In this document: positions 39,397-56,711 of the stretch, in pieces
Position numbering within the stretch: position 1 is the first letter of the stretch
Layout of the letters: each line of letters begins with the position of its first letter
IMG/VR virus record: IMGVR_UViG_3300020050_009224
Coordinates: 1 to 64,000 of that record
Source of the DNA: a virus
Lineage: Duplodnaviria > Caudoviricetes
Reading direction: 5' to 3' (one strand)
DNA: 64,000 nucleotides
Made by a program: the position numbers and the translations under genes
The notes under the pieces: model-generated
Databases searched by the model: none
What the model was told of the DNA's origin: nothing
What the model saw: only the letters and a program-made list of their open reading frames with translations

Positions 39397-39470
<74 letters not shown>

Positions 39471-39828: not shown

Positions 39829-40090
39829 TTGTATTTGAATTTTCTTCTGTTGCTCTAATTAGATTTGGATGTTTAATATTAGTGGCTTCTTCTAATTCTA
39901 TGAAAGTCATTCTCATTTTAAGTATCTTATAATAAGTCATCATAGTGGGTAATTGGATATTAAGCAAGTCTAATTGTATTGGATCTAGCTTAGAGCTGGC
40001 TTCTTTGTTTTTTAGAAAAGTATCTAACCCATTAATTTTATCTGCTAGTTGATCTTGTTCTAATACTAATCTTTCTTTAAATGTACTCAT
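39818..40090 (-). CDS. crAss001_48-like small helical protein
   Basis: ERLVLEQDQL..KI..L..FL...LL..QL..M..Y..IL..R pattern. Confidence 0.65.
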   Translation of the reverse strand: MSTFKERLVLEQDQLADKINGLDTFLKNKEASSKLDPIQLDLLNIQLPTMMTYYKILKMRMTFIELEEATNIKHPNLIRATEENSNTNEA

Positions 40091-40147
40091 TCTTCTGTTT
40101 TGTTTTTATGTTTAATTTTCTTTCTTTTATCTTCAAATCTTTGGTTT

Positions 40148-40441
40148 TTATAGCGGTGAGTCCAAAGAGTTCTGATTTTCTTTATTTTCTTTAGTTTCTT
40201 CTTTTTCATTTTCTATTAATGGATATACTTGTTTAGTAGTACCCATTTTCTCTTCTAGTACTTTTTTAAACCATTCTACAAAATTAGTAGAGTTTGTTCT
40301 AATATGTACATGATTAGGAACTTCTTCTGGAGGTATTGTTTTACTATATATTATATCTCCTATAGCTCCCTCTACTGCAAATTGTAGCATAAGAGGATTA
40401 TTTATTTTTTCTTGTTTTAAACTTTCGTTGGTTATATTCAT
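40148..40441 (-). CDS. Hypothetical protein
   Basis: 97-aa ORF in operon. Confidence 0.55.
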   Translation of the reverse strand: MNITNESLKQEKINNPLMLQFAVEGAIGDIIYSKTIPPEEVPNHVHIRTNSTNFVEWFKKVLEEKMGTTKQVYPLIENEKEETKENKENQNSLDSPL

Positions 40442-40710
40442 TGTTCTTTAAATTTTAGTTTTATATTAAAAGTATAAGTTCCACCATTAGTCATTTCATA
40501 AACTATCGTGTCTCCTTCTTCTGTTAAACTTTTAGTAGTATCCATAATAGAAGGAATTATTTTTCTAAAAATGCTACTTAAATCCATTCTATTTTGTAAG
40601 GCTTCTTCTTTTAATTCTCTAATAATGGTTTCTTCTATAATCATTCTAAGATCAGAATTTTTATCTAATACTTTAATAAATTCTAAAGCTTTATCTAATG
40701 GTATTATCAT
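40438..40710 (-). CDS. Hypothetical protein
   Basis: 90-aa ORF, ATGA-coupled to the next gene. Confidence 0.55.
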   Translation of the reverse strand: MIIPLDKALEFIKVLDKNSDLRMIIEETIIRELKEEALQNRMDLSSIFRKIIPSIMDTTKSLTEEGDTIVYEMTNGGTYTFNIKLKFKEQ

Positions 40711-40874
40711 TATTTCAAACTTTTAAGATAAGCTTTTTTCATTTCTTTATAAACTACTGATGCTCTGAATTTATCAACTGTTGAAGGTTGTAATTTAGTT
40801 TTAACTACTACGTCAAAAGCATCTCTCTTAAAGTAACTTGGTGTACTTGTGTAAAAATTAATAAGTGTTTTCAT
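40710..40874 (-). CDS. Hypothetical 54-aa protein (not in ORF track)
   Basis: MKTLINFYTSTPSYF...KSLK*; start and stop overlap both neighbours. Confidence 0.55.
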   Translation of the reverse strand: MKTLINFYTSTPSYFKRDAFDVVVKTKLQPSTVDKFRASVVYKEMKKAYLKSLK

Positions 40875-41134
40875 TTGTTTTCTTCTATATAAGTTTTTAA
40901 TTGGTTTATCATGTCAGTTAGTGCATAATATATATCTATATCATTTTCTACTGTTTTATCTTTGATTAAAATATCTCCATTAGGTTTTACTTCTAAAATT
41001 ACCTTACCCTCTTTTTTTATCAGTACAGGTGTTTCTTCTAGTATGTTAAAATACATAGAGTAAAACTGCTTAGAGTCTTCTTCTAGATTATCCTTCTTTT
41101 TCTTCATCTTCTTGCAATTTACACCAAGCTTCAT
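40871..41134 (-). CDS. Hypothetical protein
   Basis: 87-aa ORF. Confidence 0.5.
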   Translation of the reverse strand: MKLGVNCKKMKKKKDNLEEDSKQFYSMYFNILEETPVLIKKEGKVILEVKPNGDILIKDKTVENDIDIYYALTDMINQLKTYIEENK

Positions 41135-41211
41135 ATCCTATTTGTGAAATAAGCTTGAGTTGTTTATCAAATTCTCTCATACATTCTTCTCCACATTTTA
41201 ATATTATTTTT

Positions 41212-42405
41212 CTATTTTCCATATGATTTCCCAGCATAGCTGAATTTATTATTTATACAAGTAATCTGTTCAACTTGAAAGTTTCCAATCTCATCTATAT
41301 TAACTAGAGCAAATCCATTTTGCCAGTTCATTTTTTCATATCTAGAAGCATAAGCAAATCCAGGAGAGTTAATATCACAAAGACATCCAATGTTAAAACT
41401 AGCTTGATCTCCTTCAAAATAAGAGCTAATTCTATGGCTATGTCCAAACATTGAAGAACATTTCATTCTAGTTAAGTGTTGCCTGCAAGGATTTACTCCT
41501 AAATAGAAGCCATGAATAATTTGAAGTTTGCCAAGTTGAACATAGTCTTCTTTCCAGTCTTCAAACACATTATAGCCTCTTTCTTCAAGTCTAAGCCCTT
41601 TGGTCGGGTTAGGTGTCACATCTGCAAAAACAGAGTTGTTAATGTCTTTGAAATGAGAAAAATATCGAGCTTCGTGGTTGCCGTATAAAAAATTCTTTTT
41701 ACAGTTCCCTTGTAGGGTGTCATCAAATAAATCTAACCATTGGTTACCTTGCTCATATTCAACGCCTAAGCTATATCCTTCCATTGGAACTTGATTCATT
41801 TCATGTTTAGATAAAGCTAACATATCTAGAAAATCTCCAAGAATTGTAAAACTTTTAATTTTACTGGAGTAATCTTCCATGAAGATTAGAATGTTAGTAA
41901 GAAGTTCAATATTTTCAAATGGTACGTGAACATCAGGTAAAACTAGGTGTAATCCTTGATCAAAAGATTTATAAGCGTCTTTTTGTTCTGATCCAATTTT
42001 ATATCCTTTGACAAAACTTTCTACACTATTTTCAGGAATTTCTTTAACATCAATAGCCAATACTGGTTTATTGAATTGATTTGGATAAAGTATTTGGTAT
42101 GTAAAAGACTGACAGTCAGTATTTGTAGTTAAAGTAGTTTTAGGCTGTGGTTCAAGAGGTAATACTTGATGAAAGTTAGTAGAATTGTATCCAAAAAAAG
42201 GCAAAGGCTTTAATTCTGCTTGATGTTTTGCTGCTTCTTTTAAAAAAGCTATTCCATCTTCTTTTAAATAGGCTGGATAATATTCTTCAACAGTCCTGCC
42301 AGATTTTCCTAAAAGTTTGCCAATTCTTTCGTAATATTGCTTTCTAGGTTCTTTTACCCGTATAGGGTTTGAGCTAAAAAAATTAAAGTAATCTTGTTTA
42401 TTCAT
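41212..42405 (-). CDS. Calcineurin-like metallophosphoesterase with N-terminal extension
   Basis: DxH (PDVH), GD (LGDFLD), GNHE, HG and GHSH motifs. Confidence 0.88.
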   Translation of the reverse strand: MNKQDYFNFFSSNPIRVKEPRKQYYERIGKLLGKSGRTVEEYYPAYLKEDGIAFLKEAAKHQAELKPLPFFGYNSTNFHQVLPLEPQPKTTLTTNTDCQSFTYQILYPNQFNKPVLAIDVKEIPENSVESFVKGYKIGSEQKDAYKSFDQGLHLVLPDVHVPFENIELLTNILIFMEDYSSKIKSFTILGDFLDMLALSKHEMNQVPMEGYSLGVEYEQGNQWLDLFDDTLQGNCKKNFLYGNHEARYFSHFKDINNSVFADVTPNPTKGLRLEERGYNVFEDWKEDYVQLGKLQIIHGFYLGVNPCRQHLTRMKCSSMFGHSHRISSYFEGDQASFNIGCLCDINSPGFAYASRYEKMNWQNGFALVNIDEIGNFQVEQITCINNKFSYAGKSYGK

Positions 42406-42435
42406 GGGTCAAATATATGGCAAAAAACTAAGAGT

Positions 42436-42816
42436 ATGGGAGAATTAACAATTTATCAAGAAAAATTAACAGATTTTGTATATATCCTGTTTGGGTTTAA
42501 CACTCCTGTAGAACAGTACGTTGGTATGGTTGAATTTCCTAATACAGATAGAGGCTGGAAATATCATTCACTTTTTGTAGATTTTTGCTTTGATTACAAC
42601 ATAGGTATTAAAAAAGGAGATTACGAGAACTGGTTAGAAATCAATTCTATACGAACTAAAAATTATGAACTCTTTCGAAATTATTCTGGTTATGTAGTAA
42701 AAGATTTACAGGGGTATGAAGTTTTAATAGGCTCTTTAGAAGAAGTAGCAAGACAAATTGTAAACATAGAAAATCCTAATAGACGTGGAAAGAAAACTAG
42801 TAAAAAAAATCCTTGA
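42436..42816 (+). CDS. Hypothetical protein
   Basis: Probable ATG start MGELTIYQ; part of a two-gene plus-strand island. Confidence 0.5.
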   Translation: MGELTIYQEKLTDFVYILFGFNTPVEQYVGMVEFPNTDRGWKYHSLFVDFCFDYNIGIKKGDYENWLEINSIRTKNYELFRNYSGYVVKDLQGYEVLIGSLEEVARQIVNIENPNRRGKKTSKKNP

Positions 42817-43165
42817 TTGGTGTATAGAATTTTATGGATCTTCGGATTTTGAAAAGAGGCCTATAAAACTCAGAACCTACAAAAAAAAGGATGTAAATTT
42901 AAGAGGTCAGTATAATTCTGGTACTGCTACCATGCTTATTTTCATAGGCTCTCATGATACTATCATAGATCTTATAAGTACTGTGATACATGAGTATACA
43001 CATTATTTACAACCTATTATTACAGCCTATGACGATTTGACTAAATACTTTGGTTTAAAAGAACACCCTTTAGAGAGAGATGCAAATACTATTGCTATTA
43101 GAGATAGATGGATTTGCTATAAGCATTTAAAACTAGAAGATCCTAGCCTAAAGAGTCAAGGATAA
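42785..43165 (+). CDS. HExxH zinc metallopeptidase-like protein
   Basis: LRGQY...TVIHEYTHYLQ...HPLERDA. Confidence 0.75.
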   Translation: MERKLVKKILDWCIEFYGSSDFEKRPIKLRTYKKKDVNLRGQYNSGTATMLIFIGSHDTIIDLISTVIHEYTHYLQPIITAYDDLTKYFGLKEHPLERDANTIAIRDRWICYKHLKLEDPSLKSQG

Positions 43166-43571
43166 GCTTAAGTCTGTTTAAACTAAGGTTAAATACTTCT
43201 TCATTTTTAAACCGAATTATATTTTTAAAGCCTAAGTCAGTTAGTACCTCAGTTCTAATCTGATCTTTAGCTAAACCTTCTTCAGTATAATGTTGAGAGC
43301 CATCTAATTCTATAACTAGATGATAATCAGGTAGATAAAAATCTACTATCCAAAACCTACCCTTGTCATAAATCACATACTGTGTCTCGTATTTAATCTC
43401 TAATCTATTTAGGTAGTAGCAAAATATATCTTCGGCCGTTGTACTAACCCAGTTTAAACTAGTTTGATACTTTTTACTAAGTGATATTAATTTAGGATAC
43501 CTGTGGTTTATATACCTTTGATACCTTAAGCACTCTTCTGTATTTGATATTTTCTCTTTGAGTTTTGGCAT
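43143..43571 (-). CDS. DUF559/Vsr-like endonuclease
   Basis: IVDFYLPDYHLVIELDGSQH...D..R...L...G...IRF.NEEV; likely ATG 43571 with TATATTTG at 43585-43592. Confidence 0.85.
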   Translation of the reverse strand: MPKLKEKISNTEECLRYQRYINHRYPKLISLSKKYQTSLNWVSTTAEDIFCYYLNRLEIKYETQYVIYDKGRFWIVDFYLPDYHLVIELDGSQHYTEEGLAKDQIRTEVLTDLGFKNIIRFKNEEVFNLSLNRLKLILDSLG

Positions 43572-43644
43572 TATAATTAAAATACAAATATATACTATAT
43601 TCCAGAACAAGTCTGGAAGAGTTTTATTTAGGAGGCGGTGCTAT

Positions 43645-43680
43645 AAAAAAACCCCATCTGAATTACCAGACAGGGTTTAT
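43645..43680 (-). terminator. Intrinsic terminator
   Basis: Hairpin (CCCUGUCUG...CAGAUGGGG) followed by a U-run, after ORF 43701..44036. Confidence 0.65.
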
Positions 43681-43700
43681 AAAGGTTTAGCTTTTTAAGG

Positions 43701-44036
43701 TTAGACAGTGCCTTCCAAATCTGCTTTAGCTGCATCCAATTTATCAGCAAGTGCTTGACGTTGTTCAGCAGTACCACCATCAGCTACAATAACTTGTAGG
43801 TCAGCGATAATCTGGTTAAGGTCAGCAATAGCTTGATCTTTTTCTGCAATCAATACATTCTTTGCTTCAATAAGTTCTGCAATCTGAGCTTGTTCCGCGT
43901 CTACAGATGCTTGCAACTCATTTACTTTTACTTCCAATTCTTCAATGCTCATAATAATTTTTTTTAAAAAGTTAATAATTTTGGTCTGGTCTTCAGAGCC
44001 AGGGGTGTGATAATGATTTATTGTAATATTAATCAT
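43701..44036 (-). CDS. Coiled-coil protein
   Basis: Heptad pattern; own TATATTTG box (44041-44048) and terminator. Confidence 0.7.
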   Translation of the reverse strand: MINITINHYHTPGSEDQTKIINFLKKIIMSIEELEVKVNELQASVDAEQAQIAELIEAKNVLIAEKDQAIADLNQIIADLQVIVADGGTAEQRQALADKLDAAKADLEGTV

Positions 44037-44130
44037 GGCACAAATATAAGTAATAGTTAGGTACTTTTTACACTATCTGTAAAATTTATTTTTGGGTAAT
44101 ATACCCCCTTCTTTTATTTAAGTACCTAAG

Positions 44131-44204
44131 TTTTGTAAGAGATGAACCTAACCCCTACTTTTATTAGAATTTTTATATTTTGTAAATTCTGAACCTAATC
44201 CCTA
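44131..44204 (+). repeat. Imperfect 27-nt direct repeat at the strand switch
   Basis: TTTTGTAAGAGATGAACCTAACCCCTA (44131-44157) and TTTTGTAAATTCTGAACCTAATCCCTA (44178-44204). Confidence 0.7.
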
Positions 44205-44274
44205 TATTCAGCCACCATCTGTCAAAAATGGGGGAAACACCCCTATCACTATTTACAATACAAAATTTAAAGTT

Positions 44275-44649
44275 ATGATTACTATCAAAGCAAAAGTTAA
44301 CCAATATCCAAAGAATGGCTCTATCATCTTTGTTTATTCAATCATGTCTAATCTGACTGACAAGAAGAAGGCAGAAGCAGAGCTCAAAGACTACGAAGAG
44401 ACACAAGGTGCTTACTTACGTAAGGATGAGGCAGGAGATATGCTTTATTACTCACAAAGAATCTGCACTACAGGTTCTGAGCTTACTAAGACTACTAAAG
44501 GCAGATACACTGTCCTTCAGGATCTTGAACAGAAAGCGGCGGAACTTGAGTCAGCTACTACTACAGGTCTTGGTAAACTCAATGCTATTCAGCAATTTTG
44601 TGGAATGTCAAGAGCCCAAATGACTGAAAGGCTAATGGCTTCATTCTAA
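44275..44649 (+). CDS. First early-region protein, hypothetical
   Basis: 124 aa, A-rich leader, followed by a hairpin (~44655-44690). Confidence 0.75.
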   Translation: MITIKAKVNQYPKNGSIIFVYSIMSNLTDKKKAEAELKDYEETQGAYLRKDEAGDMLYYSQRICTTGSELTKTTKGRYTVLQDLEQKAAELESATTTGLGKLNAIQQFCGMSRAQMTERLMASF

Positions 44650-44769
44650 GGATTTAAGAGGGAAGAGGGCCTTAACAGCTCACTTCTCTTTATACTAGTA
44701 TAAATATATCTAGTATCTAATCCCTCTACCCTCTACTAACATTCTAAAATCCTCAATAAAATTAATTTC

Positions 44770-45093
44770 ATGAATATCAAATTAACAGGTGAATCTAGTG
44801 ATTTAACTTGTAATCCAACTAGGTCTAATATGGTAGTTAAAACTTCTTTTGGTGGTTTTAAACTTGCTGAGGAGGCCACTTGGGATAATTGGAAAATGGG
44901 AATTGTATTTCCTAATGAAGAGAAAGCTCAATATTTTTTAAAGGCTTTTAATTCAAAAATGCTGGACTATAGAGATGGGATGTTAAAAGAAGATTATGTA
45001 GTACATGTAATTCATTTTAAATATCCTAAACCTGAAAGTTTATACGCAGATCAAATAACAATGACATCTGATTATATAACTGAAGAGTATTGA
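44770..45093 (+). CDS. Hypothetical protein
   Basis: 107-aa ORF with AT-rich leader. Confidence 0.65.
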   Translation: MNIKLTGESSDLTCNPTRSNMVVKTSFGGFKLAEEATWDNWKMGIVFPNEEKAQYFLKAFNSKMLDYRDGMLKEDYVVHVIHFKYPKPESLYADQITMTSDYITEEY

Positions 45094-45122
45094 TCTATGT
45101 TAAGATTTACTTAGTACTAACT

Positions 45123-45225
45123 GACTGTAACTAAAGAGAGGGTTGCCGCCACCATCTCACTTTAAGCTAGAAAGAGAGATATAGGATAGTAATCAAATAC
45201 TGTCCTATTCTCTTTAGTTATAGTC
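45123..45225 (+). ncRNA. Four-way-junction structured RNA
   Basis: 17-bp closing stem with one G.U pair, enclosing three hairpins. Confidence 0.6.
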
Positions 45226-45357
45226 TTTTAAGTTTATAATTGTTTAAACTGTTTAATTATTCAATTGATAAATTGATAAATTGTTATATTGTTAAATGAT
45301 TATAACTCTTATCAACTCTAATCAACATTTCAACAACTAAACTAATCACCAAAAATC

Positions 45358-45552
45358 ATGAAAACAGCTTACATATGCTTAATATGGTTACTCATAGTAA
45401 TACTATCACTTTCAATCCAGCCTATGATAAATGCTGGATTGCATCCTAATCTTACATTCTTATATGTATTAATTGGGCTTTGTTCTTTACTTGCTTGTCT
45501 TATTACTTGGATATTTATATCTACTGATAGTAAGGTAAATTCAAAAACTTAA
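45358..45552 (+). CDS. Small two-TM membrane protein
   Basis: 64 aa, hydrophobic. Confidence 0.55.
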   Translation: MKTAYICLIWLLIVILSLSIQPMINAGLHPNLTFLYVLIGLCSLLACLITWIFISTDSKVNSKT

Positions 45553-45706
45553 CTCTTTCCAAGATGTTGAGGACACCAGTTTCTTTGATTAAGGACACAG
45601 TATCTCATTATGTTAAAAAACAGATGATACGGCTGCATAAGACTTATTTGCTCTAACGAGAATACATTTAAGTAATAATTAATCAAAGTTTTAGGTGTAA
45701 AACACA
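45548..45706 (+). ncRNA. Repeated structured RNA motif A, copy 1
   Basis: CTTAACTCTTTCCAAGATGTTGAGGACACCAGTTTCTTTG-[variable]-CAAAGTTTTAGGTGTAAAACACA. Confidence 0.75.
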
Positions 45707-46014
45707 GTTGCAAAATTAAACTAATGCAACAAATAGTAGGTACTTGTCCTACAAATCATTTAGCTGTAGGCATATAGCTATCTAAAATAACATCAGTAAT
45801 TACTTCTACTGTTGTTAGATTATTATTCAAGACTATAAGCATCAATTAAGGTGTGTGATAGTGATTGTCTTATTATTATGTAACAAAAATTAATTGCTGA
45901 AGGATTAACTCAAAATGTAGTAAATATGAGTTAGTAGATAGGCGTTTGTTATCCTTGCATTGGGAAACATCCTATAAAAATTGCCGTTATTCTTATACCG
46001 TTATTATAAGAACT

Positions 46015-46146
46015 TAAACAACAACACAGAATGTACAGATTAGAACTCTCAATTCTAATTAACTGAAAACACCTTGAGAAAGTGTGAATAGGTTCTACAA
46101 TTAATTAAGGCTTATAACCATTAATTGTAGTATGTGTTGTTGTTTA
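46015..46146 (+). ncRNA. Multi-stem RNA with kissing loops
   Basis: 14-bp perfect closing stem; loops CUCUCAA and CUUGAGAAA share 6-bp complementarity. Confidence 0.6.
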
Positions 46147-46219
46147 TTTTACTAATGCAGCTATTGTAGTAATACAATAAGAGTCCAAAGCCTCTATAAA
46201 TGCAGATGGGTAAAATAGA
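46143..46219 (+). ncRNA. Twister ribozyme (P1 type)
   Basis: P1 UAUUUUAC/GUAAAAUA; UAA; P2 UGCA/UGCA; GC; P3 AUUGUA-GUAA-UACAAU; P4 AGAG-UCCAAAGC-CUCU; AUAAA; GAUGG. Pseudoknots T1 (CCA/UGG) and T2 (GC/GC) are intact. Confidence 0.9.
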
Positions 46220-46289
46220 GTAAACTATTCAAATCAGGTGTTCAACACTACCTATAATAAAGTGTGTTGTAAAACAAAAATTTAAAACA

Positions 46290-46472
46290 ATGTCAGAAAA
46301 AGAGTTTGACTTTCATGTAGATAATAAAATTAGTCAATTAATGAAAGCAGTAGCAGATTATCAAAATAATCCTGATAAAGCTAAAGATTATATTTTTACC
46401 ACAGTAAAAAACATAGTTAAATCTTCAAAGGAATTTGGTAAAATGACTGTTGCAGAAGAATTATTTGGTTAG
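46290..46472 (+). CDS. Hypothetical protein
   Basis: 60 aa, A-rich leader. Confidence 0.55.
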   Translation: MSEKEFDFHVDNKISQLMKAVADYQNNPDKAKDYIFTTVKNIVKSSKEFGKMTVAEELFG

Positions 46473-46558
46473 TTTATTAGTTGTAGGTAATCTATAAACC
46501 TTCATTTTTTTCATTCACTTAACAACCACTGGCAAGTTGTAATAATATGTAAAATAAA

Positions 46559-46798
46559 ATGGAACAAGAAATTACATTTGAATCACACCCTATTTCTTTT
46601 ATTCAACAACTTGAACAAGAAATAGAAGATAACCACCCTTCAAGATTAACATCAGAAGATATTGAAGATGTATCTGATAATTATCAAGCACATTTAGAAT
46701 ATAAATGGTGGAAAGATGAACAATCTGAATTAATTAAAGATTTAAAATCTCAGCTTACAAAAGAGCAATTAGAACTTTATAATCAACTTAATTCATAA
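46559..46798 (+). CDS. Hypothetical acidic protein
   Basis: 79 aa, A-rich leader. Confidence 0.6.
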   Translation: MEQEITFESHPISFIQQLEQEIEDNHPSRLTSEDIEDVSDNYQAHLEYKWWKDEQSELIKDLKSQLTKEQLELYNQLNS

Positions 46799-46847
46799 AA
46801 CATTTGAGTTTAGGGGAGATTGTATCAAACCTGAACTTATTAAAAAA

Positions 46848-46987
46848 CTTAAATAACTTTCCAAGTTGTTGAGGACACTAAGTTTCTTTGATAATAAGTG
46901 TGAAGAATCACTTTCAGGATTAAGCAGACCCAACTTTATAGTTAGCGGAGCTAAATGTATTTATCAAAGTTTTTAGTGTAAAACACA
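46848..46987 (+). ncRNA. Structured RNA motif A, copy 2
   Basis: Same ends as copy 1 with compensatory changes (AACUU-UCC-AAGUU; ACACUA/UAGUGU). Confidence 0.75.
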
Positions 46988-47524
46988 GATTCTGTATATA
47001 TCTGTTTTTTATCAAAGAAAAGAAAACTCTTTTAGAAACAAATTAGTCTCAACACAATGAGAGCCTTAAACAAACACTTGACTCTTCAGGTGATTATGAA
47101 GGTAAGTAGGGTTATTTGTTTATCCTACTAAATTTAAAGACTGGTAAACCAGCAGAATGTGGATGTTTCTGTATTATAACTCCACCTAATTGAGTTTTCT
47201 TTTTCTTCTTTCTAAACACAAACCAATAAACAAACTAAAGCTATGTACACAGGACACAAACTTACTCTTATCAACATACAATGTAGATGTAAGAGGATTA
47301 CACAATTTGTACAATTACCTACATATAATGGTAAAGCTGTACTTCATCAATCAACAAAAGAAAAAAGTAAGACAAAAAAGAATTCCTTTGTCCTGGTGGC
47401 TACTACCTTTAGAGTAGTATAAGTAGCTACTAGTATAAATACTGCTAAGTTACTACATTTTTTCCACATATTTGTCATAATACTATCATTTATTTTACAC
47501 CTGTTTAACCAAATAACTAAACTA

Positions 47525-47680
47525 ATGGCTAAATTTTTAATTTTTGTACTTCTTATCTGTTTTATTACCTCAAGTTGTTCCACATCTAAAGGTTATAACT
47601 ATAAAGCCCATCATGCTAAATCTATAAAATATAAACATAACAATGAGCATGGTAAATATATGAAATGTAAAAAACACTAA
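47525..47680 (+). CDS. Small lipoprotein (51 aa, not in ORF track)
   Basis: MAKFLIFVLLICFITSS-C lipobox; His/Lys-rich mature part. Confidence 0.55.
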   Translation: MAKFLIFVLLICFITSSCSTSKGYNYKAHHAKSIKYKHNNEHGKYMKCKKH

Positions 47681-47820
47681 AATCCCAAAACTTATGTACC
47701 AATATCTTACCACATTTGACTATGAATCAGAAGCTGAAAGAATGGACAATTCCATTTTATCTCTTAGTTCTTTAAGAACAATTGTAAATTCATTTATAAT
47801 GCCTTAAATACTCTAAAAAG

Positions 47821-48006
47821 ATGAATGAAATATCTTATTCTAAAGATTCTAAAGCTGAAAAAATGCTTAAAAAAGCAATGAAAGTAGTAGATGATTATCT
47901 AAATGCTGGATTTAAAGAAGAACGAACATTAGCTCATAACAAAGCTAAAAAACTTTATAAGGAATATTATGGAGTTGAATACAAGAATAGAGAAGAAAGG
48001 AGGTAA
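47821..48006 (+). CDS. Hypothetical protein
   Basis: 61-aa ORF. Confidence 0.55.
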   Translation: MNEISYSKDSKAEKMLKKAMKVVDDYLNAGFKEERTLAHNKAKKLYKEYYGVEYKNREERR

Positions 48007-48089
48007 ACATGCCTAAATACGACTATTCAGTTCAAGTATTAGAATCTATATATGATTATGTAGATTCATTCTTTGATTAATAAAAAAAA

Positions 48090-48191
48090 CTTAACTCTTT
48101 CCAAGATGTTGAGGACACCTAGTTCTTTGTAGCAACGCTCATGCTGTAAGTACATTAGTACTAAGTGAACAAAGTTTTGGTGTAAAACACA
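48090..48191 (+). ncRNA. Structured RNA motif A, copy 3
   Basis: Same conserved ends; shortest variable insert. Confidence 0.75.
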
Positions 48192-48421
48192 AAAAAAAGA
48201 ATAATGTACTAGAGATTCTTTCAAATTATCATCTAGGAGAATAAGTCTTTAAGGATTGTAATAATCTCAATAAAAATCAATTCTTTAACAAAAAAAGCCA
48301 GCTATGAGTGAGATCATAGTAATTTGATAGAACAGTAGAGACTTACGAAAAACGCAAGGAGGCTGTTCATTTTGCTATTCATAACCAATTCAATAACTAA
48401 AGCTGCTCACATATCAGTTAT

Positions 48422-48664
48422 ATGTGCAAAAACATGTCTTATACAACACCTTCTCCAAATCCAGAATCAAGAATTACTGTATTTGATTTTTATACAGATA
48501 ATTTTACAACACTAGATGCAGATTGCACTAAAGCTGTAGGTTATCAAGTTAAACCAAATGATATTTGGTCAATAAATATAAGAGAACATGAACTCAGAAG
48601 ATTACATGTAACCTTGACTATTATTTATTGGAGTCTTGAATCAGTTGCAAAAAGAAATTCATAA
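48422..48664 (+). CDS. Hypothetical protein
   Basis: 80-aa ORF (second Met may be the true start). Confidence 0.5.
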   Translation: MCKNMSYTTPSPNPESRITVFDFYTDNFTTLDADCTKAVGYQVKPNDIWSINIREHELRRLHVTLTIIYWSLESVAKRNS

Positions 48665-48700
48665 ACTTTGGTTAGCCTGCGATAACATCAACGGCTAACT

Positions 48701-49100
48701 ATTTTAACTTAAAAGTGCAGTATTTGATAGGCATATCGTAATACGAAATTGACTGAACAATACCTTTCTACAGAATAGGGTATAAAGTATAATTAAGCTG
48801 TGATGGCTATTATTCCTTAAATGAGGATATAGTACTCTGTGAAGAGTTAATTAATTGAACTGAAAAAACACAAATTATACATATTGTGTGATTTTACATG
48901 GACCATAAGGTGTGATAATAACGCCTGATCCTAAATATTATGTTGAGCTTAAAAAGAAGCTCAATTAGAATGTAGTAGTAATACTATGACTAAGCTCCTC
49001 AAGCCAATATTATGTGTAATCTTATCAAAGGTAGGAATACCAATAACAGTTCATAGAGGTAATGTATAATCCTCTATTTCAAGCACTTTTAATTTAAAAT
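48701..49100 (+). ncRNA. Large (~400 nt) ornate RNA candidate
   Basis: 17/18-bp closing stem, many internal hairpins, long-range pairings, no listed ORF. Confidence 0.6.
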
Positions 49101-49131
49101 AAAAACACAATAACTCTAAATAATAAAACCA

Positions 49132-49341
49132 ATGAAAGTATTTCAGTATTTCTTCATGCTATTTACAGCAGCCCTAATTTGCTTATTAACTCATTGTATT
49201 GGATATGGATTTTTAAGCAATAAAGTCTTAAATTACAATGATATCTCATTTATGGGATGGATTGGAACAATAATCTGGTATGGATTTATATTTTCTGCTG
49301 CACATGTAATGTATATGCAATACCTTGAAGAAAATAAATAA
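49132..49341 (+). CDS. Small two-TM membrane protein
   Basis: 69 aa, hydrophobic. Confidence 0.55.
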   Translation: MKVFQYFFMLFTAALICLLTHCIGYGFLSNKVLNYNDISFMGWIGTIIWYGFIFSAAHVMYMQYLEENK

Positions 49342-49520
49342 TTTTTAACGTGCTTTTTCGACACCGAAATGGTGTAAAGTAACCCAATATCTGATTATAA
49401 CTTATAATATGAGTTTAAGAAACTTTGTACCAGTAATAGCTGGAGTAATACAATATGTATTCGTAAGTCTTAGCAGTGAGGGTTATTTTTAATTCACTAA
49501 AACTATAAAACTATGAAACT

Positions 49521-49670
49521 ATGAAAATACCAACTTATGGATATTTATGCACATGTAGTAATTGTGGATGTGCATTAACAGCTAAAGTTACAATTAATCT
49601 ATATCTTGGTTCAGGTTACTATTGTAGTAATTGTAAATCAAATGTAGATAAAGAATTATATGGTAAATAA
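49521..49670 (+). CDS. Small zinc-ribbon protein (49 aa, not in ORF track)
   Basis: CSNC...CSNC. Confidence 0.55.
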   Translation: MKIPTYGYLCTCSNCGCALTAKVTINLYLGSGYYCSNCKSNVDKELYGK

Positions 49671-50118
49671 CAGATCCTTCGTACATAAAGTATTCACTAT
49701 TTTTCCCAATAGATGCGCAAATGGGTTTTTAGTGTTTAGTGAGTATATATTAATAGTAGAATGTCATCACCCTCTGTAGTGGAGGAAGAATTCAAGCTTA
49801 TTATTAGTAAGAGTCTCACACTGTTGGATCTTAAAAATGATTAATTATCAATTACCGAAAGTGGGGATTAAAATACACGGGTAATTAGTCATTTTCATTA
49901 TTCTTATTATAAGGAGAGTATTCGTAAATGATGCTTTCGTGTCTGTATTGGGGAAGCTGTGTGAAGATGCACAGCTCTCCTTATAATATGAATTATTATT
50001 CTACAAATAAAGAGATTTAATCTCATACTAAATAGTTAGAGATTTAGCTAGTATTGTTAGTTACTCGAATAATTAAATGTAATTCGAGCATTTACTAGCT
50101 AATCTCTTTATTTATAGA

Positions 50119-50204
50119 TATTTCCTCCTATGGATAGCCCAGCATAGGCTCTCCTATATTCATACTTTATAGTATTAGTATAGGGGAGAGAAGGAATACT
50201 GGGC
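50119..50204 (+). ncRNA. Three-way junction with loop-to-3'-tail pseudoknot
   Basis: Stems UUCCU/AGGAA, CCUAUG/CAUAGG and CUCUCCUAUA/UAUAGGGGAG; loop GCCCAG pairs with tail CUGGGC. Confidence 0.6.
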
Positions 50205-50310
50205 CTAATGTACCACAACTCATTTCCCAAGGATGAACAATTGTAATAATGCTAGGAATAGATTAGTATACATAAATACTAAGAGGATTACAATTGAGTA
50301 CAGAGGGTTT
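50201..50310 (+). ncRNA. Variant twister-like ribozyme with P5 insertion
   Basis: UAA-UGUA-CC...UCAU-UUCCCAAGG-AUGA-A-[CAAUUGUAAU...AUUACAAUUG]-AG-UACA-GAGGG; P1 is weak. Confidence 0.55.
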
Positions 50311-50744
50311 AAAACAAAACTGGAGCTTTCTAGCTAATCTTTTGAATGTCTTTGATAGTTTAACTACCTCAAAGTTTTAGCTCTAAACTATTATTAAATC
50401 CTTCTCAACTGAGTAATTGTTTTTATTAAACAAATTGCGTTGACATTCTAAACAGTTTTAAAATTTAATCTAGGAACTGTAAAGGGCAGCTCACCAAAAG
50501 TTTAAAACAAGAAGAGATTTGATTCATCTCCTAGATTATTTAATAACAACTAATACTTAAAAAACATGATGCCAGAACTAACACCTAGCTTTTTAAATCA
50601 CTTAAGGTATTTACCTATAGTGTGGAATGCAACTCCTAAATCTTGTAAAATGGATAAAAGAATAGGATGTAGAATACAACCATTAGACATTGATACATTG
50701 ATTTATGGAGTAGATTCAGTAATCTTTTTAAACTAGTTAAAACT

Positions 50745-51089
50745 ATGATTAAATTTAAAAAAATAATAGCAAAAGAAAACAACTTCATTTATAGATTTAA
50801 TCTTTACCTTAAAAAAGGCTCTATCAAATTACATTTAATATGTAGCGATGATACAAGAGAACCTCATAATCATCCTTGGGATTTTAAGAGCTTAATATTG
50901 TTTGGAGGTTACAAAGAGTTTAATGAAAAAGGAGTACAAACTAATTTTAGATTTTTATCTGTAAATAAAAAAGATACTTCTGTTTTTCATAGATTGGAGT
51001 TGTACAAACTATTGGGTATTAAAATACCTTGTTTAACCATTGGTAGATATTCAGAAAAAAAACAAACTTTTACATTCTTTAAAACTTAA
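50745..51089 (+). CDS. Cupin-like protein
   Basis: LH...SDD.REPHNHPWDF.SLIL.GGY.E...FHRL. Confidence 0.7.
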   Translation: MIKFKKIIAKENNFIYRFNLYLKKGSIKLHLICSDDTREPHNHPWDFKSLILFGGYKEFNEKGVQTNFRFLSVNKKDTSVFHRLELYKLLGIKIPCLTIGRYSEKKQTFTFFKT

Positions 51090-51092
51090 ACT

Positions 51093-51413
51093 ATGGCTGA
51101 AAGAAGAATAAAAAAAGATATTACATATATAGATCCAAGTAAAAAAGGAGCTTTATTATTATCTAAAAACAGAAAAATACAACTAACAAGACTTAAGCCT
51201 AAAAATGCTGATGATGGATTTAATATTCTTATTAGATCAACTTTGGGTGATGTAACAAAACCAGCTGTTGAGCACAAAGTTTTAAAAGGTAAGGTTAGAC
51301 AGTCACAAATTACTATTTCTTCAGAAGCAATGGCAGAAATTGTTAATATGTATCACATACTTACAGAAAAATCTGATTCAATTACATTAACTTGGAAAGA
51401 AAAACAATCTTAA
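51093..51413 (+). CDS. Hypothetical protein
   Basis: 106-aa ORF. Confidence 0.65.
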   Translation: MAERRIKKDITYIDPSKKGALLLSKNRKIQLTRLKPKNADDGFNILIRSTLGDVTKPAVEHKVLKGKVRQSQITISSEAMAEIVNMYHILTEKSDSITLTWKEKQS

Positions 51414-51426
51414 AACAAATAAACAA

Positions 51427-51591
51427 ATGGAAGAATTAATTGAAACTCCTTCAAAGAATAAACTTTTCAAAATTAGAAAAGGATATTCTAAGACAATGCA
51501 CAATCTTATGAAAAAATACAATGTAAAAACTGTAGAAGAGTATCGTAAAATCAGAAAAGCAAACAGAAAAAAATTAAGAAGCGACCTGTAG
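51427..51591 (+). CDS. Small basic protein (54 aa, not in ORF track)
   Basis: MEELIETPSKNKLFKIRKG...; A-rich leader; hairpin at 51625-51648 downstream. Confidence 0.55.
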   Translation: MEELIETPSKNKLFKIRKGYSKTMHNLMKKYNVKTVEEYRKIRKANRKKLRSDL

Positions 51592-51788
51592 TTAGGACAG
51601 GTTTTTGGTTTAGGTTTAGTGACTTAGGGTAGGAAACGTTCTACCCTTTGTTTTAGATTTAAGATATGAATAATTTCATAAATAAAAGAGAGCCAATCTA
51701 ACCACATTTGTAGTGGAGAAAAGGATGAATTTGTAAATGACCAAGTATCTTGAATCTAAAACAATTGTTTAATTAAATCTTTAAAAAC

Positions 51789-51965
51789 ATGAAACTAACA
51801 ATTTTAATCTTATCTGTTATTTGTATTGCAATTTGTATACATGCTAATTATATCCAAACTCAATACAGAAAACAAAATTTACAATTAATCCATGTTGTAA
51901 ATAGACAAAAGAACAAAATTTGGATGTATGAGCATTGTTACACAATAACATGTAAACAAAAATAA
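51789..51965 (+). CDS. Small membrane-anchored protein, paralogue 1 (not in ORF track)
   Basis: MKLTILILSVICIAICIHANY...WMYEHCYTITCKQK, clearly similar to 53208..53396. Confidence 0.75.
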   Translation: MKLTILILSVICIAICIHANYIQTQYRKQNLQLIHVVNRQKNKIWMYEHCYTITCKQK

Positions 51966-52007
51966 CAAGTGACCCAAGAGGATTAATTCCACAATGTAAA
52001 CTTGTTT

Positions 52008-52853
52008 AAAGAATAACTCAATATATGATTATAACTTACTTAATACCAAGAATAATTACTAGATGTTTGGTGTTGTAACACATTAATCTTACACCTATTA
52101 GGTAATTTGCATTGAGAGTTATTCTTTCTTTTATTTAGTATAGAGAAATACTCAAGAACCCTATACTGTCTGTTATTGCAACATCTATAGAATGACTAAG
52201 AAATCTTGTGTCTCTGTACTAAATAAAAGTAATTTAAAAACTTAAAATCACTTGCTTGAAGATAAACAATAACGTATGAATTGGTAGATAGGTAAGGTTC
52301 GATTCCTGTAAATTGTCCCTATTATTGTTATAAACTGTACTAGCAGTTGTGTTTATTGTAAAGATATTATTGAAAAATGAGTTTGCGAGTGTTAATTCAT
52401 GGCGCGATTATTAAAATGATATAGTATTCCACTAGAATTTGGACAAGTGATTTTATTAATGCACCATCTCATGTAGATATAATCGACTTCTTAGTGTCTC
52501 TTAGAGATAAAGAACTTGCTAAGCTGATTGGAGTAATCCATGTAATATTGGAGCTAGTCTAACCTAAAGGGTAGAGAATTGTAAAGCATACTTGAAAATA
52601 CATTGCATTGCATAAAATATGGTTCGAGTCCAGGAGGTCATGTTGTAAACAGCATGGCATCCAATAGGGTAGGTGGGTGCCCAATGTATATAATCTAAGT
52701 AAAGTATGTGGTGGCAGCTAAGTGTTAAACTGTAGGATTAATTACCTATGTATGCGGGAACTTAGCCTCAACAATAGTAATATTGTTGTAGTAGTTGTTA
52801 AGTTGATAAAGGAATAAGTCATGTATGAACTCCTCAAATAACAACATTGTGCA
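52008..52853 (+). ncRNA. Block of four abutting structured RNA domains (52008-52127, 52128-52229, 52243-52455, 52460-52853)
   Basis: Each has its own closing stem (12, 19, 12 and 5 bp); two tRNA-type T-loop hairpins at 52295-52307 and 52620-52632; no listed ORFs. Confidence 0.6.
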
Positions 52854-53207
52854 GACTGGAGTGATTACCAGTAACAAAAAATTAAAAATTATGAATTGGA
52901 ATAGTGATTGGACTAAAAATTTTCCTGTAACTTTAGGGATAGGAATTAGTTTAGGAATATTAATTGGAGTATTATTATGTATTAATTTATTTCAATTATA
53001 TTAAAGAACTTTTAGTATATAAGACAGACTTTATACAGATAAAATACAAGTACCTAAAGGTTTAAAGAGGGAACTTATGTTGTTAGACAGTTTAAAAACA
53101 GAATGTGACAGTATTGAAAAAACTGGAAGGATGTCACAATAACAAAGTGATTAAGGTTGAACACGCTTGTATTTTTATTAAATATTAACTTTAAAAACAA
53201 AAAAAAC

Positions 53208-53396
53208 ATGAAACTAACAATTTTAATCTTATCAATTATTTGTATTGCAGTTTGTGTACATGCTAATTATGTGCAAGAAAGATACAAAAAACAAAATCTT
53301 GCTCTTATCTATGCTTTTAATCGTCAAAGAAATAAAGTATGGATGTATGAACACTGTTACAAGATTACTTGTAAAGATAATGTAAAAACTAACTAA
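53208..53396 (+). CDS. Small membrane-anchored protein, paralogue 2
   Basis: ATG 53208 inferred from alignment with paralogue 1. Confidence 0.75.
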   Translation: MKLTILILSIICIAVCVHANYVQERYKKQNLALIYAFNRQRNKVWMYEHCYKITCKDNVKTN

Positions 53397-53398
53397 GT

Positions 53399-53659
53399 AT
53401 GTATTTCTACTTATTTCTAACCTTAGTTATGATAATATGGAATATTTATCAAGTTAATCCTTGTTTATTTTCATTACATGCTAAATATCTATATTTCTTT
53501 AATGGTAAACACAATATCTATAAATGCCATCTGTGTACTAATTATAAAAGTACTAGGACACCAAAAACAATGTATGGTAATTTAAAGGTAAATCAAAAAT
53601 ATCATAAAACTTTGGTAACACAGAGTTTTAAATTCATAAAATCTACTTATCTTTTTTAA
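53399..53659 (+). CDS. Hypothetical protein
   Basis: 86 aa; C...H...CxxC pattern. Confidence 0.45.
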   Translation: MYFYLFLTLVMIIWNIYQVNPCLFSLHAKYLYFFNGKHNIYKCHLCTNYKSTRTPKTMYGNLKVNQKYHKTLVTQSFKFIKSTYLF

Positions 53660-53839
53660 ACCATTCCTTTGTATAGTTGTAATAACAGTGACGGTGCTGG
53701 AATAAATATTAGCTGACCTTAATTTAAAGACCAGTAATGGTGTGCCATAAGAGAAATCTCACTAATCAAAGGAATCACCGATGTATATATGGTATTGGGA
53801 CTAACTATAAACTATGTAAATACCTGTGATTTATAATAG

Positions 53840-54136
53840 ATGTTAGAATATTTATTTATTACAACTTACATTGGAATTAAAAACTTAAATAATATGAAGA
53901 TAGGAGATAAACTCATTGATCTTGATAATTCTTTTATAGAATATGTCAAATTATACAATAAAGACATTGAAAAAGAAGAGAATAAAATGCTTATTGTAAA
54001 AAGAGAAGATTGTATTATTAAGGATATAATCAATGATTCTATTCAAGTTTATATAAGTAAATGCACAAATCATGGTATAAATTGTTTACAATGGTTCAGA
54101 ATAGAAAATTTTAATAAAAGATTCAAACTTAAATGA
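53840..54136 (+). CDS. Hypothetical protein (likely start MKIGDKL)
   Basis: ORF; SH3/KOW-like KIGD start. Confidence 0.55.
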   Translation: MLEYLFITTYIGIKNLNNMKIGDKLIDLDNSFIEYVKLYNKDIEKEENKMLIVKREDCIIKDIINDSIQVYISKCTNHGINCLQWFRIENFNKRFKLK

Positions 54137-54314
54137 TAAAGGTAAATCAAAGTTAAAAAACAAAAAGAAAGTTTTATGTGTAGAAGATAATCAAATATTT
54201 GATTCTTTAACACAAGCTTCTGAACATTACAATATTTCAATAACCACTATATCTAACATATTACATGGAAAAAGTAAAAAAGCAAGGAATGGAAAGTCTT
54301 TTCGTTTCTTATGA
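54105..54314 (+). pseudogene. Start-less NUMOD1-like DNA-binding domain remnant
   Basis: KKVLCVEDNQIFDSLTQASEHYNISITTISNILHGKSKKARNGKSFRFL*; no ATG after the upstream TAG. Confidence 0.6.
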
Positions 54315-54741
54315 GTTGGCTTTATTAGCTAAAGAAAAAGGATTTGATGAGCCTTGTTTTGCTGCTTGGTTTAAATATACAATACTAAATGATAAAAAGA
54401 TTGAATTAACTAAGCCAAAAGATAGTATTTATGGTGAAAATTTTCTTTTTAAAAATTCATTAGAAATATTTATAGATAATAGTATAAGTGGTAAAGGAGA
54501 TGGAGCTAAATGTTCAGCACCTCTTTATCAACAATTAGTTGATTGGTTTAGAGAAAAACATAAACTATATATCGAAGTTTCTTGGATTACAACAAATGAT
54601 GAAATAAATCATAAAGTTAATTTTTGGTATATGATAACTAAAGAAGATGTTTTAGAATTTGATTTAGAATCTCCAAAAGAATTTGACTCATATTATGAAG
54701 CTCTAAACAAAGCATTAACTGAAGCATTTAAACTAATTTAA
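54289..54741 (+). CDS. Conserved-type Bacteroidota phage protein
   Basis: VSYELALLAKEKGFDEPC...SAPLYQQLVDWFREKH...YYEAL..AL..AFKLI; probable start MESLF. Confidence 0.65.
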   Translation: MESLFVSYELALLAKEKGFDEPCFAAWFKYTILNDKKIELTKPKDSIYGENFLFKNSLEIFIDNSISGKGDGAKCSAPLYQQLVDWFREKHKLYIEVSWITTNDEINHKVNFWYMITKEDVLEFDLESPKEFDSYYEALNKALTEAFKLI

Positions 54742-54742
54742 C

Positions 54743-54991
54743 ATGGAACCAAAAAATTTAGAAAAATTAGCAGTATTAATGGGATTATCTTTTAAAGAAA
54801 AAAGTAATTTTCCTGATATGTTAGCTAAAGGAACAAGAGTATTTGATGGAATAAATGGGCAAAGATTTTTAATTGAGTCCTCTTGGTCCGATGATAAAAT
54901 ATATCAAGAATTAGGCAAAGCTCTTATTTCTATCGGTAAAAGACAAAAATGTATGGAAATTAATAAAATTTTATCAATAACCTCTGATTAA
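54743..54991 (+). CDS. Hypothetical protein
   Basis: 82-aa coupled ORF. Confidence 0.6.
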   Translation: MEPKNLEKLAVLMGLSFKEKSNFPDMLAKGTRVFDGINGQRFLIESSWSDDKIYQELGKALISIGKRQKCMEINKILSITSD

Positions 54992-55527
54992 CATGGAAAA
55001 GAATATATTAAGAAGTAATAGTTTACTATCAAGATTAGAAAAAATAGGAAATTCAACTGATGAAAAAGTACATCAAATACTTGAAAATCAAGTAGTTATG
55101 ATGGAAGCTTTACAAAAGCAAAAGGATAAATTTAATGATTATTAAAATGAAAAAATGAAAAACTTAAAATAATATGCAACTATTTCTAACTTTCTATTAT
55201 TTATTTTTAAAAGAATACTAGATAAAAACAAACAAAAATGATAGATTTTAATAAAAAAATTCAAGAAAAATTTAATCAGATGTGTGAATCTGGTAATTAA
55301 ATACAACAACCCCCGTTATTTATGCAACAAAAAACTTATTTATCGTTTAAAGCTTTAAAAGAACTTCAAAATCTCTATTCTTATCATCAATATTGGAAAG
55401 AATCTCAAAATGAACCAATGCTGCAAAGGATAGAAAATGAAATTCGAATATTTAAAATGAACCATAATATGGCTGATTAATTTAGCTTTTATTATTTAAT
55501 TAGTACAAACTAACTAAAATTCAGTAA

Positions 55528-55779
55528 ATGGAAATCAAAGAAAGAACTATACTGGAATTTTTTAATGAATTTCCAGAACCTTATAAAACTCAGGCTATTC
55601 ATAACTACAATGAAAAACCATTGTCAAAAGATAAACATCTTCATCATTGGGCTGCTTTAATAAGTGGTTTTGAATGGGCACTTACTAAAGAAGAAGGTAA
55701 ATATTGGGATAATTTTTATAAAGACTTAGTAACTGAAAAAGTTATATTAACAGCTGGTAATCATTGTGAAATCTATTAA
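55528..55779 (+). CDS. Small protein ending HCEIY
   Basis: 83 aa; F.W..T.E...YW motif; variant of the YEIY tail. Confidence 0.65.
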   Translation: MEIKERTILEFFNEFPEPYKTQAIHNYNEKPLSKDKHLHHWAALISGFEWALTKEEGKYWDNFYKDLVTEKVILTAGNHCEIY

Positions 55780-55799
55780 TAAACAAATTTAACACAAAT

Positions 55800-56711
55800 A
55801 TGAGCGCAAAAAGATTTTCAAAAGATGAACTTTATAGTAAAATATATAGTTTAAATAAGAAAGATAAGATGAAATATCCAGCTAATGGTTATAATACTCT
55901 ACAAACTGCTAAAAGACTCTTACAAGAATATGCAAACAGAGATTATACAGATAGAGCTATTTCTAAAACTCATAGAGAAATAACTAGGATAAAATGACAA
56001 GAAGGCACCATAAAAAGCTTCAGGCACTATGTAAAGATAATTTAAAAATATCTGGAAGTAGTGCTTGGCTTTCTGATTTAGATTCCTTAGCTAATAATCA
56101 ACATTCTTATTTTAGAATAATAGCTTTGATAGGAAGTAACAATTTAAGTGGTAAAATAAAACATTTTAAACATTTATTAAACTAATGAAAATAATTTTAT
56201 TTATACTTCCTTCTATTTTTGGATTTATTGCTATATTTTTTGCTTTAAAGGTATTTTTTGCTTTAAAGGTTATTATAAGCGCATTTAATCCAGATATTGA
56301 TGAAAATTACACTATAAATTATACACCAGTTTATACAAATATGGCTAAAGCAATTTTATTTTTAATAATTCAATATTCACTAATTTTTATATTATCATGA
56401 AAAATTTATTATTACAAAAACCTTGGGTTATCACTGGATTTATAGCTGTAATATGCTTTATTATAGGCTATTGTGGAAAATTTCAAGAGGCTGCTAAAAA
56501 ATCTACTAATCAATCTTACAAAGATAGTTTAGATTTAGTAAATCAAGAATTCTGCATAGCTAGAGAAAAGCTAATTATAACTAATTCTTTAATTACTAAA
56601 CTTGAAGAAAAAGCAATTTATTTAAATAAGTACATTATTTTTAGACAAGAAGAACTAATGGATTTATGTCCTAAAACACATTATCATGTCTCAAATAAAC
56701 GTAGATACTAA
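55800..56711 (+). other. Four small coupled hypothetical ORFs (55800, 55994, 56185, 56397); the last two are membrane-type
   Basis: Overlapping start/stop codons in the ORF track. Confidence 0.55.

Follow-up and report, generated by a model that had tools for sequence, protein, structure and literature searches.

The window analysed here covers the initial 64 kb of an IMG/VR virus record of 98,184 bp that is rated complete and has a G+C content of ~30%. The minus strand carries the large virion genes as far as ~42.4 kb, and small open reading frames (ORFs) on the plus strand take over from ~44.3 kb onward. PHROGs names a major head protein, a portal and a large terminase. All matches of the head protein are to crAss-like phages (cr108_1, IAS virus, Bacteroides crAss phages and Cellulophaga phages), with identities of 22-24%, so the phage is, on protein similarity, a distant member of the Crassvirales. 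Reading TAG as glutamine or TGA as tryptophan (table 4) gives no longer ORFs in the interval 42-56 kb, and the low coding density is thus not a recoding artefact. Within this small-gene region, plus-strand positions 45713-46290 hold no ORF of at least 30 aa and constitute a gene-free leader of 577 nt. A phage GenBank collection contains no nucleotide match to 45900-46300 or to 40000-52000. At the Rfam gathering threshold the sole listing is a tRNA-Met (39397-39467), and neither a tRNA nor an Rfam family is detected in 45700-46150. Apart from the twister described below, cmscan finds no known ribozyme at E ≤1 in 42400-56000.

Upstream of the leader lies a conserved crAss-like intergenic unit of two blocks (45538-45706, plus strand), which is recognized from repeats in the window and from IMG/VR matches. 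Block A (45538-45589, AAAACTTAACTCTTTCCAAGATGTTGAGGACACCAGTTTCTTTGAT) is repeated at 46837-46893 and 48085-48129, with a variable insert and then a 20-mer-like block, and the unit is also present in the stretches designated L015, L142 and L144. It ends in the 20-mer AAGTTTTAGGTGTAAAACAC (45685-45704), which includes the small palindrome GTTTTA-GGTG-TAAAAC. The exact 20-mer occurs in 113 IMG/VR stretches (L018-L129) on contigs of 5-183 kb, usually 15-40 nt before an ATG, once (L081) directly before a tRNA-like sequence, and often 40-60 nt after a second conserved block (...TTTCCAAGATGTTGAGGACACCAGTTTCTT...). Two close relatives, L116 and L129, agree with the window through the whole 20-mer and lose all similarity right after it. 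A literature search on the 20-mer found no paper. The 20-mer could act as a promoter or mark the start of crAss-type early units, including the twister leader; a DNA-hairpin promoter like those of the N4 virion RNA polymerase is speculation. Scanning for sigma-70-type promoters and terminators gave fewer promoter-like sites than in shuffled sequences and nothing at the ends of the element. The stem of the 20-mer is resembled by helix P1 of the twister (GUUUUAC/GUAAAAC). At a contig end in IMGVR_UViG_3300035126_000842 (G001, 122261-122313) the 20-mer is followed directly by AATAGAGTAAACTATTCAAAT, the window's post-twister sequence, and in L015 and L144 GTAAAACACAATA occurs twice, ahead of the leader and again behind the twister (8927-8940 and 9196-9209 in L015). 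Insertion of leader and twister into the 20-mer motif was considered as an origin and is not relied on: the G001 case (122293-122313) is the last 21 nt of its contig, and the other copy of the motif in that contig continues differently.

The leader that follows (45707-46014, plus strand) is ORF-free and rich in hairpins, and is 97-99% identical in L142 and L145, with 8 substitution or indel sites. From 45707 to the predicted ribozyme cut, the plus strand forms one 447-nt hairpin-rich stretch with no ORF of at least 30 aa, and the interval 45700-46153 folds with z = -3.5. Beyond the twister, a second leader of 76 nt (46214-46289) comprises TAGAGTAAACTATTCAAATCAGG and a hairpin, CAACAC...GUGUUG, and extends to the next start codon. 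Alignment shows that this post-twister leader is conserved in the window, L142, L145, L146, L144 and L015; in L144 the hairpin reads UAAUAC...GUAUUG, with one change on each side. The first downstream ORF (46290-46472, plus strand) encodes 60 aa and has neither a PHROG nor a family match. The ORFs that follow the leader differ between the window, L142, L145, L146 and L144. A further shared leader type is seen at 46519-46558, where TAACAACCACTGGCAAGTTGTAATAATATGTAAAATAAA precedes the ORF at 46559 and is close to post-20-mer sequences in L057, L082, L087 and L091 (...AACAAGCAACTGGCAAGTTGTAATAATATGCAAAACAAA ATG).

A type-P1 twister ribozyme occupies 46143-46219 on the plus strand, as identified from the cmscan alignment, the predicted helices and pseudoknot covariation. 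Type-P1 twisters are reportedly self-cleaving ribozymes, a description that goes back to Roth et al. in 2014. The original prediction had named a complete twister with expected cleavage between U46153 and A46154, and a search with the twister-P1 model, which it had suggested, agrees on both the ribozyme and the predicted site. With a permissive E-value threshold, cmscan aligns 46149-46213 (plus strand) to model positions 1-68 of 68 of RF03160 (twister-P1) at 57.5 bits, with E-values of 3.4e-12 in 801 nt, 5.7e-11 in 13.6 kb and 9.8e-14 in the whole 98-kb record. The Rfam gathering score for RF03160 is 67.2; the window twister falls below it and is hence unlisted at that threshold. The UAA of the model aligns to 46153-46155, which places the expected scissile bond between U46153 and A46154. 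Site-specific self-cleavage at this U/A step, with 2',3'-cyclic phosphate and 5'-OH termini, is predicted from membership of the class.

By sequence, helix P1 can reach 10 bp, with 46143-46152 paired to 46210-46219. In the predicted fold, P2 pairs 46156-46159 with 46201-46204, the optional P3 pairs 46162-46168 with 46173-46179, and P4 pairs 46180-46182 with 46193-46195 around the loop GUCCAAAGCC (46183-46192). The cmscan alignment and covariation place the pseudoknot at C46185-G46209, C46186-G46208 and A46187-U46207. All core nucleotides are present between 46153 and 46209, namely the UAA at the cut, the GC after P2, the GUCCNAAGCC loop, the AAA before the P2 3' strand and the GANGG element. 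Two positions depart from the Rfam consensus, a C to A change in the P4 loop (GUCCAAAGCC) and a G to U change in GAUGG. These departures were assessed against a comparison set that came from an IMG/VR scan, in which the motif's 3' half was the query and the two departing positions were left free, and that comprises the distinct full twisters so obtained (n = 62). The fixed core pattern of the window twister is that of these 62 distinct viral twisters. Their variable pseudoknot pair is Watson-Crick in every one of the 62 (A-T 24, C-G 31, T-A 3, G-C 4), and the window's A46187-U46207 pair therefore represents a compensated change. The sub-threshold score may partly reflect the inability of the covariance model to score this A-U pseudoknot pair. 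Across the same set, pairing is 90-100% in P4, where every pair shows at least four pair types, and 85-90% in the first three pairs of P1; these P4 and P1 pairs covary. The inner pair of P2 occurs as A-T, G-C or T-A. The core pattern of the window (TAATGCAGC ... GTCCAAAGCC ... AAATGCAGATGG) is matched exactly by 16 viral and 7 metagenomic stretches, in which the P3 stems differ in sequence, are internally complementary and covary. Judged by these sequence and structure hallmarks, the twister is a genuine type-P1 ribozyme.

Immediately 5' of the ribozyme, positions 46015-46146 (132 nt, plus strand) fold into a stem that encloses a large branched insert. The minimum free energy (MFE) structure has a 14-bp stem (46015-46028 with 46133-46146), here termed P0, around an insert of 104 nt that forms three hairpins (46038-46060, about 46061-46094 and 46095-46130). 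The MFE of 46012-46150 is -36.1 kcal/mol compared to -21.4 +/- 3.2 kcal/mol in shuffled sequences (z = -4.64), which agrees with the original prediction of a structured upstream RNA of about 130 nt. The last P0 pair lies 7-9 nt 5' of the cut, where ~7 nt had been expected to remain after the stem, and the overlap proposed between its closing stem and the P1 5' strand is seen as 2-3 nt common to the P0 3' strand and the extended P1 5' strand. In 46010-46225, both the MFE and the centroid structures contain P0 side by side with the twister helices, and the prediction therefore shows no competing fold. The stem adjoins P1 on its 5' side, which is the place of the twister auxiliary stem-loop P0/L0, described in PMC11662667 as a stem-loop immediately upstream of the ribozyme 5' terminus. 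That study attributes P0/L0 to ~10% of candidate twisters (McKinley et al.) and gives mean cleavage fractions in high-throughput in vitro assays of 0.40 with P0/L0 and 0.85 without auxiliary stems (PMC11662667). These lower values suggest that P0 may modulate the ribozyme, beyond capping its product. The upstream fold thus does not look like an independent RNA gene and resembles an unusually large version of a known twister element. The hairpin-before-twister layout is already known, and the locus is a clear example of it, not a new kind of element.

Stable structure before the cut is a frequent feature of viral twisters. Across a dereplicated set of 54, the 45-nt segment that precedes the cut has a mean folding energy of -11.4 kcal/mol compared to -6.8 kcal/mol in control windows from the same loci and -5.4 kcal/mol downstream, and the excess over the controls is significant (Wilcoxon p = 7e-7). 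Upstream windows fall within the lowest 5% of controls in 31% of these cases, compared to 5.6% for downstream windows. When 220 nt are folded, a stem of at least 5 bp ending no more than 8 nt from P1 is found in 63% of 52 viral twisters versus 33% of control positions. Most of the sampled P0 stems are simple GC-rich hairpins, and P0 spans in the 52 sampled viral twisters are 14-54 nt. The P0 of the window, with 132 nt and 14 bp, is the sole one of 52 that combines a span above 54 nt with a stem of at least 8 bp; other long spans, with stems of 5-7 bp, may be folding noise. Viral twisters share the orientation of their neighbours: ORFs called crudely (at least 60 aa) end within 100 nt upstream on the same strand in 42% of twisters, compared to 12.5% on the opposite strand. 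In none of 76 twister-bearing loci does a tRNA abut the ribozyme, and the nearest same-strand tRNA lies ~240 nt upstream. The analogy that had been drawn with phage ribozymes that trim tRNA trailers consequently finds no parallel among these loci.

The branched insert has a narrow distribution. The 133-nt upstream fold that carries it is single-copy in the genome, the 16 viral loci that share the twister core all lack a similar upstream sequence, and an exact-pattern scan for the insert hairpins in 2.9 million viral contigs gave 0 matches. A metagenome scan found the 104-nt insert only in L142 and L145, near-identical copies with 97-99% identity to 45681-46292. Positions 45987-46229 are invariant among the window, L142 and L145, against 8 and 11 differing sites in the flanks, and this invariance of insert and twister may point to a role for the insert; with the P0/L0 segment taken by itself, ~3 changes are expected and P is ~0.05 under a uniform rate. 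Zero substitutions across the copies also mean that the insert offers no covariation. We consider that the branched insert is probably a lineage-specific elaboration of the P0 loop.

More distant relatives carry smaller versions of P0 on the same ribozyme module. The metagenomic stretch L146 (an ERZ795056 contig of 8690 bp) has an identical twister and the same downstream leader, with 96% identity over 46138-46292. Here a simple hairpin of 15 bp with a loop of 6 nt, ACAACACACCC-UUAAUU-GGGUGUGUUGU, takes the place of P0; it begins no more than 46 nt after a stop codon. The 3' strand of this hairpin runs on into UUUAUUUUAC, as in the window, which places the window's closing stem (AAACAACAACACA...UGUGUUGUUGUUU) in the position of that hairpin. 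Compared to the 64-kb window, L146 matches only 46138-46292 (96%; reverse complement of 6700-6853) and an intergenic block at 46477-46509 (100%; reverse complement of 6973-7005); the rest of its 8.7 kb, including all flanking genes, is unrelated. In the L004, L009 and L010 group, P0 is AAACAGAG-UUAA-UCUCUGUUU and stands directly after a stop codon, and L015 and L144 have the stem of the L004 group with a 45-nt insert. The occurrence of the module at 96% identity in otherwise unrelated phage backgrounds suggests movement as a cassette, and the hairpin-twister-leader unit appears, from these alignments, to behave as an exchangeable intergenic element.

Intergenic modules in general seem to be exchanged between these phages, and the small ORFs between modules differ. 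L015 is syntenic with the window at 35-46 kb. A non-coding stretch of the window at 52221-52809 has 70-76% nucleotide identity in the L015/L144 lineage (reverse complement of 2206-2795 in L144), where it lies only ~350 nt after the twister; this counterpart could serve for comparison when covariation within the stretch is assessed. A 44-nt motif (...CCTAATGTACCACAACTCATTTCCCAAGGATGAACAATTG...) at 50205-50249 is present at 86-89% identity in several unrelated twister-bearing contigs (L004 6343-6377, L006 1036-1079, L007 2660-2703 and L010 753-796) and lies ~120 nt downstream of the twister in L006 and L007.

The locus is probably best described as a type-P1 twister with an oversized P0/L0 in a crAss-like leader, whose self-cleavage would leave a hairpin-capped 3' end on the upstream RNA. 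Transcription, presumably of the plus strand and probably from at or near the 20-mer, would pass through the structured leader, with P0 folding first and the twister second. The twister would then cut between U46153 and A46154. The upstream RNA, either the leader or a longer read-through transcript, would end in the 14-bp stem followed by 7-9 unpaired nt and a 2',3'-cyclic phosphate. Such a hairpin-capped end should be a poor substrate for 3' exonucleases, which would make P0 protective. The downstream RNA would start with a 5'-OH inside the folded ribozyme and continue through the conserved leader into the 60-aa ORF. Cleavage in vivo, transcription and a protective role of P0 are inferred. 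In the synthetic pRAP system in E. coli, cistrons released by a twister were poorly expressed unless a stem-loop stood just upstream of the cleavage site (PMC9872166); protection of an upstream product by a stem before a twister cut is demonstrated by experiment only in that engineered system and would apply here by analogy. Processing of polycistronic mRNA has been proposed as a role of bacterial twisters (PMC6765202). The upstream partner at this locus is a non-coding RNA of 447 nt, so that the phrase "protecting an upstream mRNA" is not literally applicable.

A different function was originally proposed for the upstream domain, in which the 130-nt three-hairpin structure is a dedicated non-coding RNA held by a kissing contact between UCUCAA (46047-46052) and UUGAGA (46074-46079), with the twister serving to set its exact 3' end. 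The two plus-strand hexamers are indeed exact complements. Among dinucleotide shuffles, 3.3% contain a 6-nt complement of loop 1 within the 72 nt that make up the rest of the insert, a figure uncorrected for the choice of loops, and UUGAGA is partly paired within hairpin 2 in the MFE structure; the complementarity is therefore present but weakly above chance, and the loop-loop contact is possible in this model and statistically weak. The stability of the fold (z = -4.64), the 6-nt complementarity, the absence of substitutions across 45987-46229 in three copies with flanks differing at 8 and 11 sites, and the precedent of small-RNA 3' ends made by theta ribozymes in phages (PMC10879173) would all fit a dedicated RNA. 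However, the closing stem sits in the generic P0 position and is replaced by a plain hairpin in L146 with an identical twister, the insert has no homologue beyond copies of 97-99% identity that lack substitutions and no second genomic copy, covariation is absent, one loop is partly buried in hairpin 2, and no 5' end, promoter or processing site is recognized at 46015. Maturation of a dedicated kissing-loop RNA by the twister is thus unsupported at this locus, and we regard this reading as unlikely. It is likewise doubtful that the 104-nt insert is a functional RNA domain (e.g., one that binds protein or RNA and is held together by the loop-loop contact) to which the twister gives a fixed hairpin-proximal 3' end; if it were, the locus would be a natural case of a twister that matures a non-coding RNA instead of separating messages.

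Three further readings concern the ribozyme and its stem more directly. P0/L0 could be a regulatory platform: its branched L0 would bind protein or RNA, or switch fold, and thereby set the rate or occurrence of cutting, making cleavage and expression of the downstream ORF conditional. The lower in vitro cleavage of twisters with P0/L0 (0.40 versus 0.85; PMC11662667), the 2-3 nt shared by the P0 3' strand and the extended P1 5' strand, and the invariance of the insert among copies would fit such a platform, but the predicted ensemble holds P0 and twister together with no competition, the shared nucleotides fall outside the 4-8 bp P1 core, no ligand-type or protein-binding motif is recognized, and most sampled P0 stems are simple GC-rich hairpins with nothing to sense, which makes a regulatory function a rather poor candidate. 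It is improbable that the hairpin-twister-leader unit is mainly a portable cassette spread by recombination, an insulator or terminator substitute with the L0 insert as neutral baggage, even though L146 has only 46138-46292 (96%) and 46477-46509 (100%) in common with the window, the ORFs after the leader differ between the window and L142, L145, L146 and L144, and L116 and L129 diverge exactly at the end of the 20-mer. Portability is compatible with a processing function and so does not exclude it, and purifying selection on the ribozyme core and pseudoknot is clear. Least probable is a decayed or inactive look-alike that cuts nothing. A score under the Rfam gathering threshold and AU-rich helices could be read in this way, but the match is full-length with E of 1e-13, every core position is intact, the altered pseudoknot pair is compensated, and 16 viral plus 7 metagenomic stretches carry the identical core pattern with covarying P3 stems; moreover, ~94% of tested natural twister candidates were active (PMC11662667).

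The preferred reading, a type-P1 twister with an enlarged P0/L0, is best placed by comparison with known systems. The window twister shares with RF03160 the helices P1-P4, the conserved loop nucleotides, the UAA cleavage context and the pseudoknot, whereas its stems are AU-rich, its pseudoknot has A-U where the Rfam consensus has C-G, it scores 57.5 versus 67.2 bits and its host genome is that of a distant crAss-like phage. Twister and hammerhead ribozymes in prophage and phage operons (PMC6765202) are also intergenic, co-oriented with flanking genes and located in small-gene regions; in contrast, the window's twister is preceded by a long non-coding leader beginning at a conserved crAss-type intergenic motif, whereas stop codons precede the twisters in L146 and the L004 group. 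The theta (HDV-like) ribozymes of gut phages trim tRNA 3' trailers (PMC10879173). They resemble the twister as small phage ribozymes just 3' of a structured RNA whose 3' end is defined by the cut, but they belong to a different class and their partner is a tRNA of known function, whereas 0 of 76 twister loci abut a tRNA. Most twisters still lack an assigned biological role (PMC6765202), and to that question the present locus adds an example of an apparently mobile module across otherwise unrelated phage backgrounds. The synthetic pRAP arrangement has the same order of stem-loop, twister and next ORF, but is engineered and was used in E. coli with T7 RNA polymerase, whereas the upstream product here is non-coding and predicted from the sequence (PMC9872166). 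A stem before the cut is common in viral contigs (about two thirds of a small sample) and more stable than background, and this frequency together with the pRAP experiment points to capping of the new 3' end. The window also resembles P0/L0 as described, in that the stem ends directly at the ribozyme 5' terminus (PMC11662667); the version in the window differs in its span of 132 nt, 14-bp stem and three-hairpin insert, compared to 14-54 nt in 52 sampled viral twisters. Loops of 6 nt, 45 nt and 104 nt on the same ribozyme module form a natural series in which the effects of P0 size on a twister could be compared.
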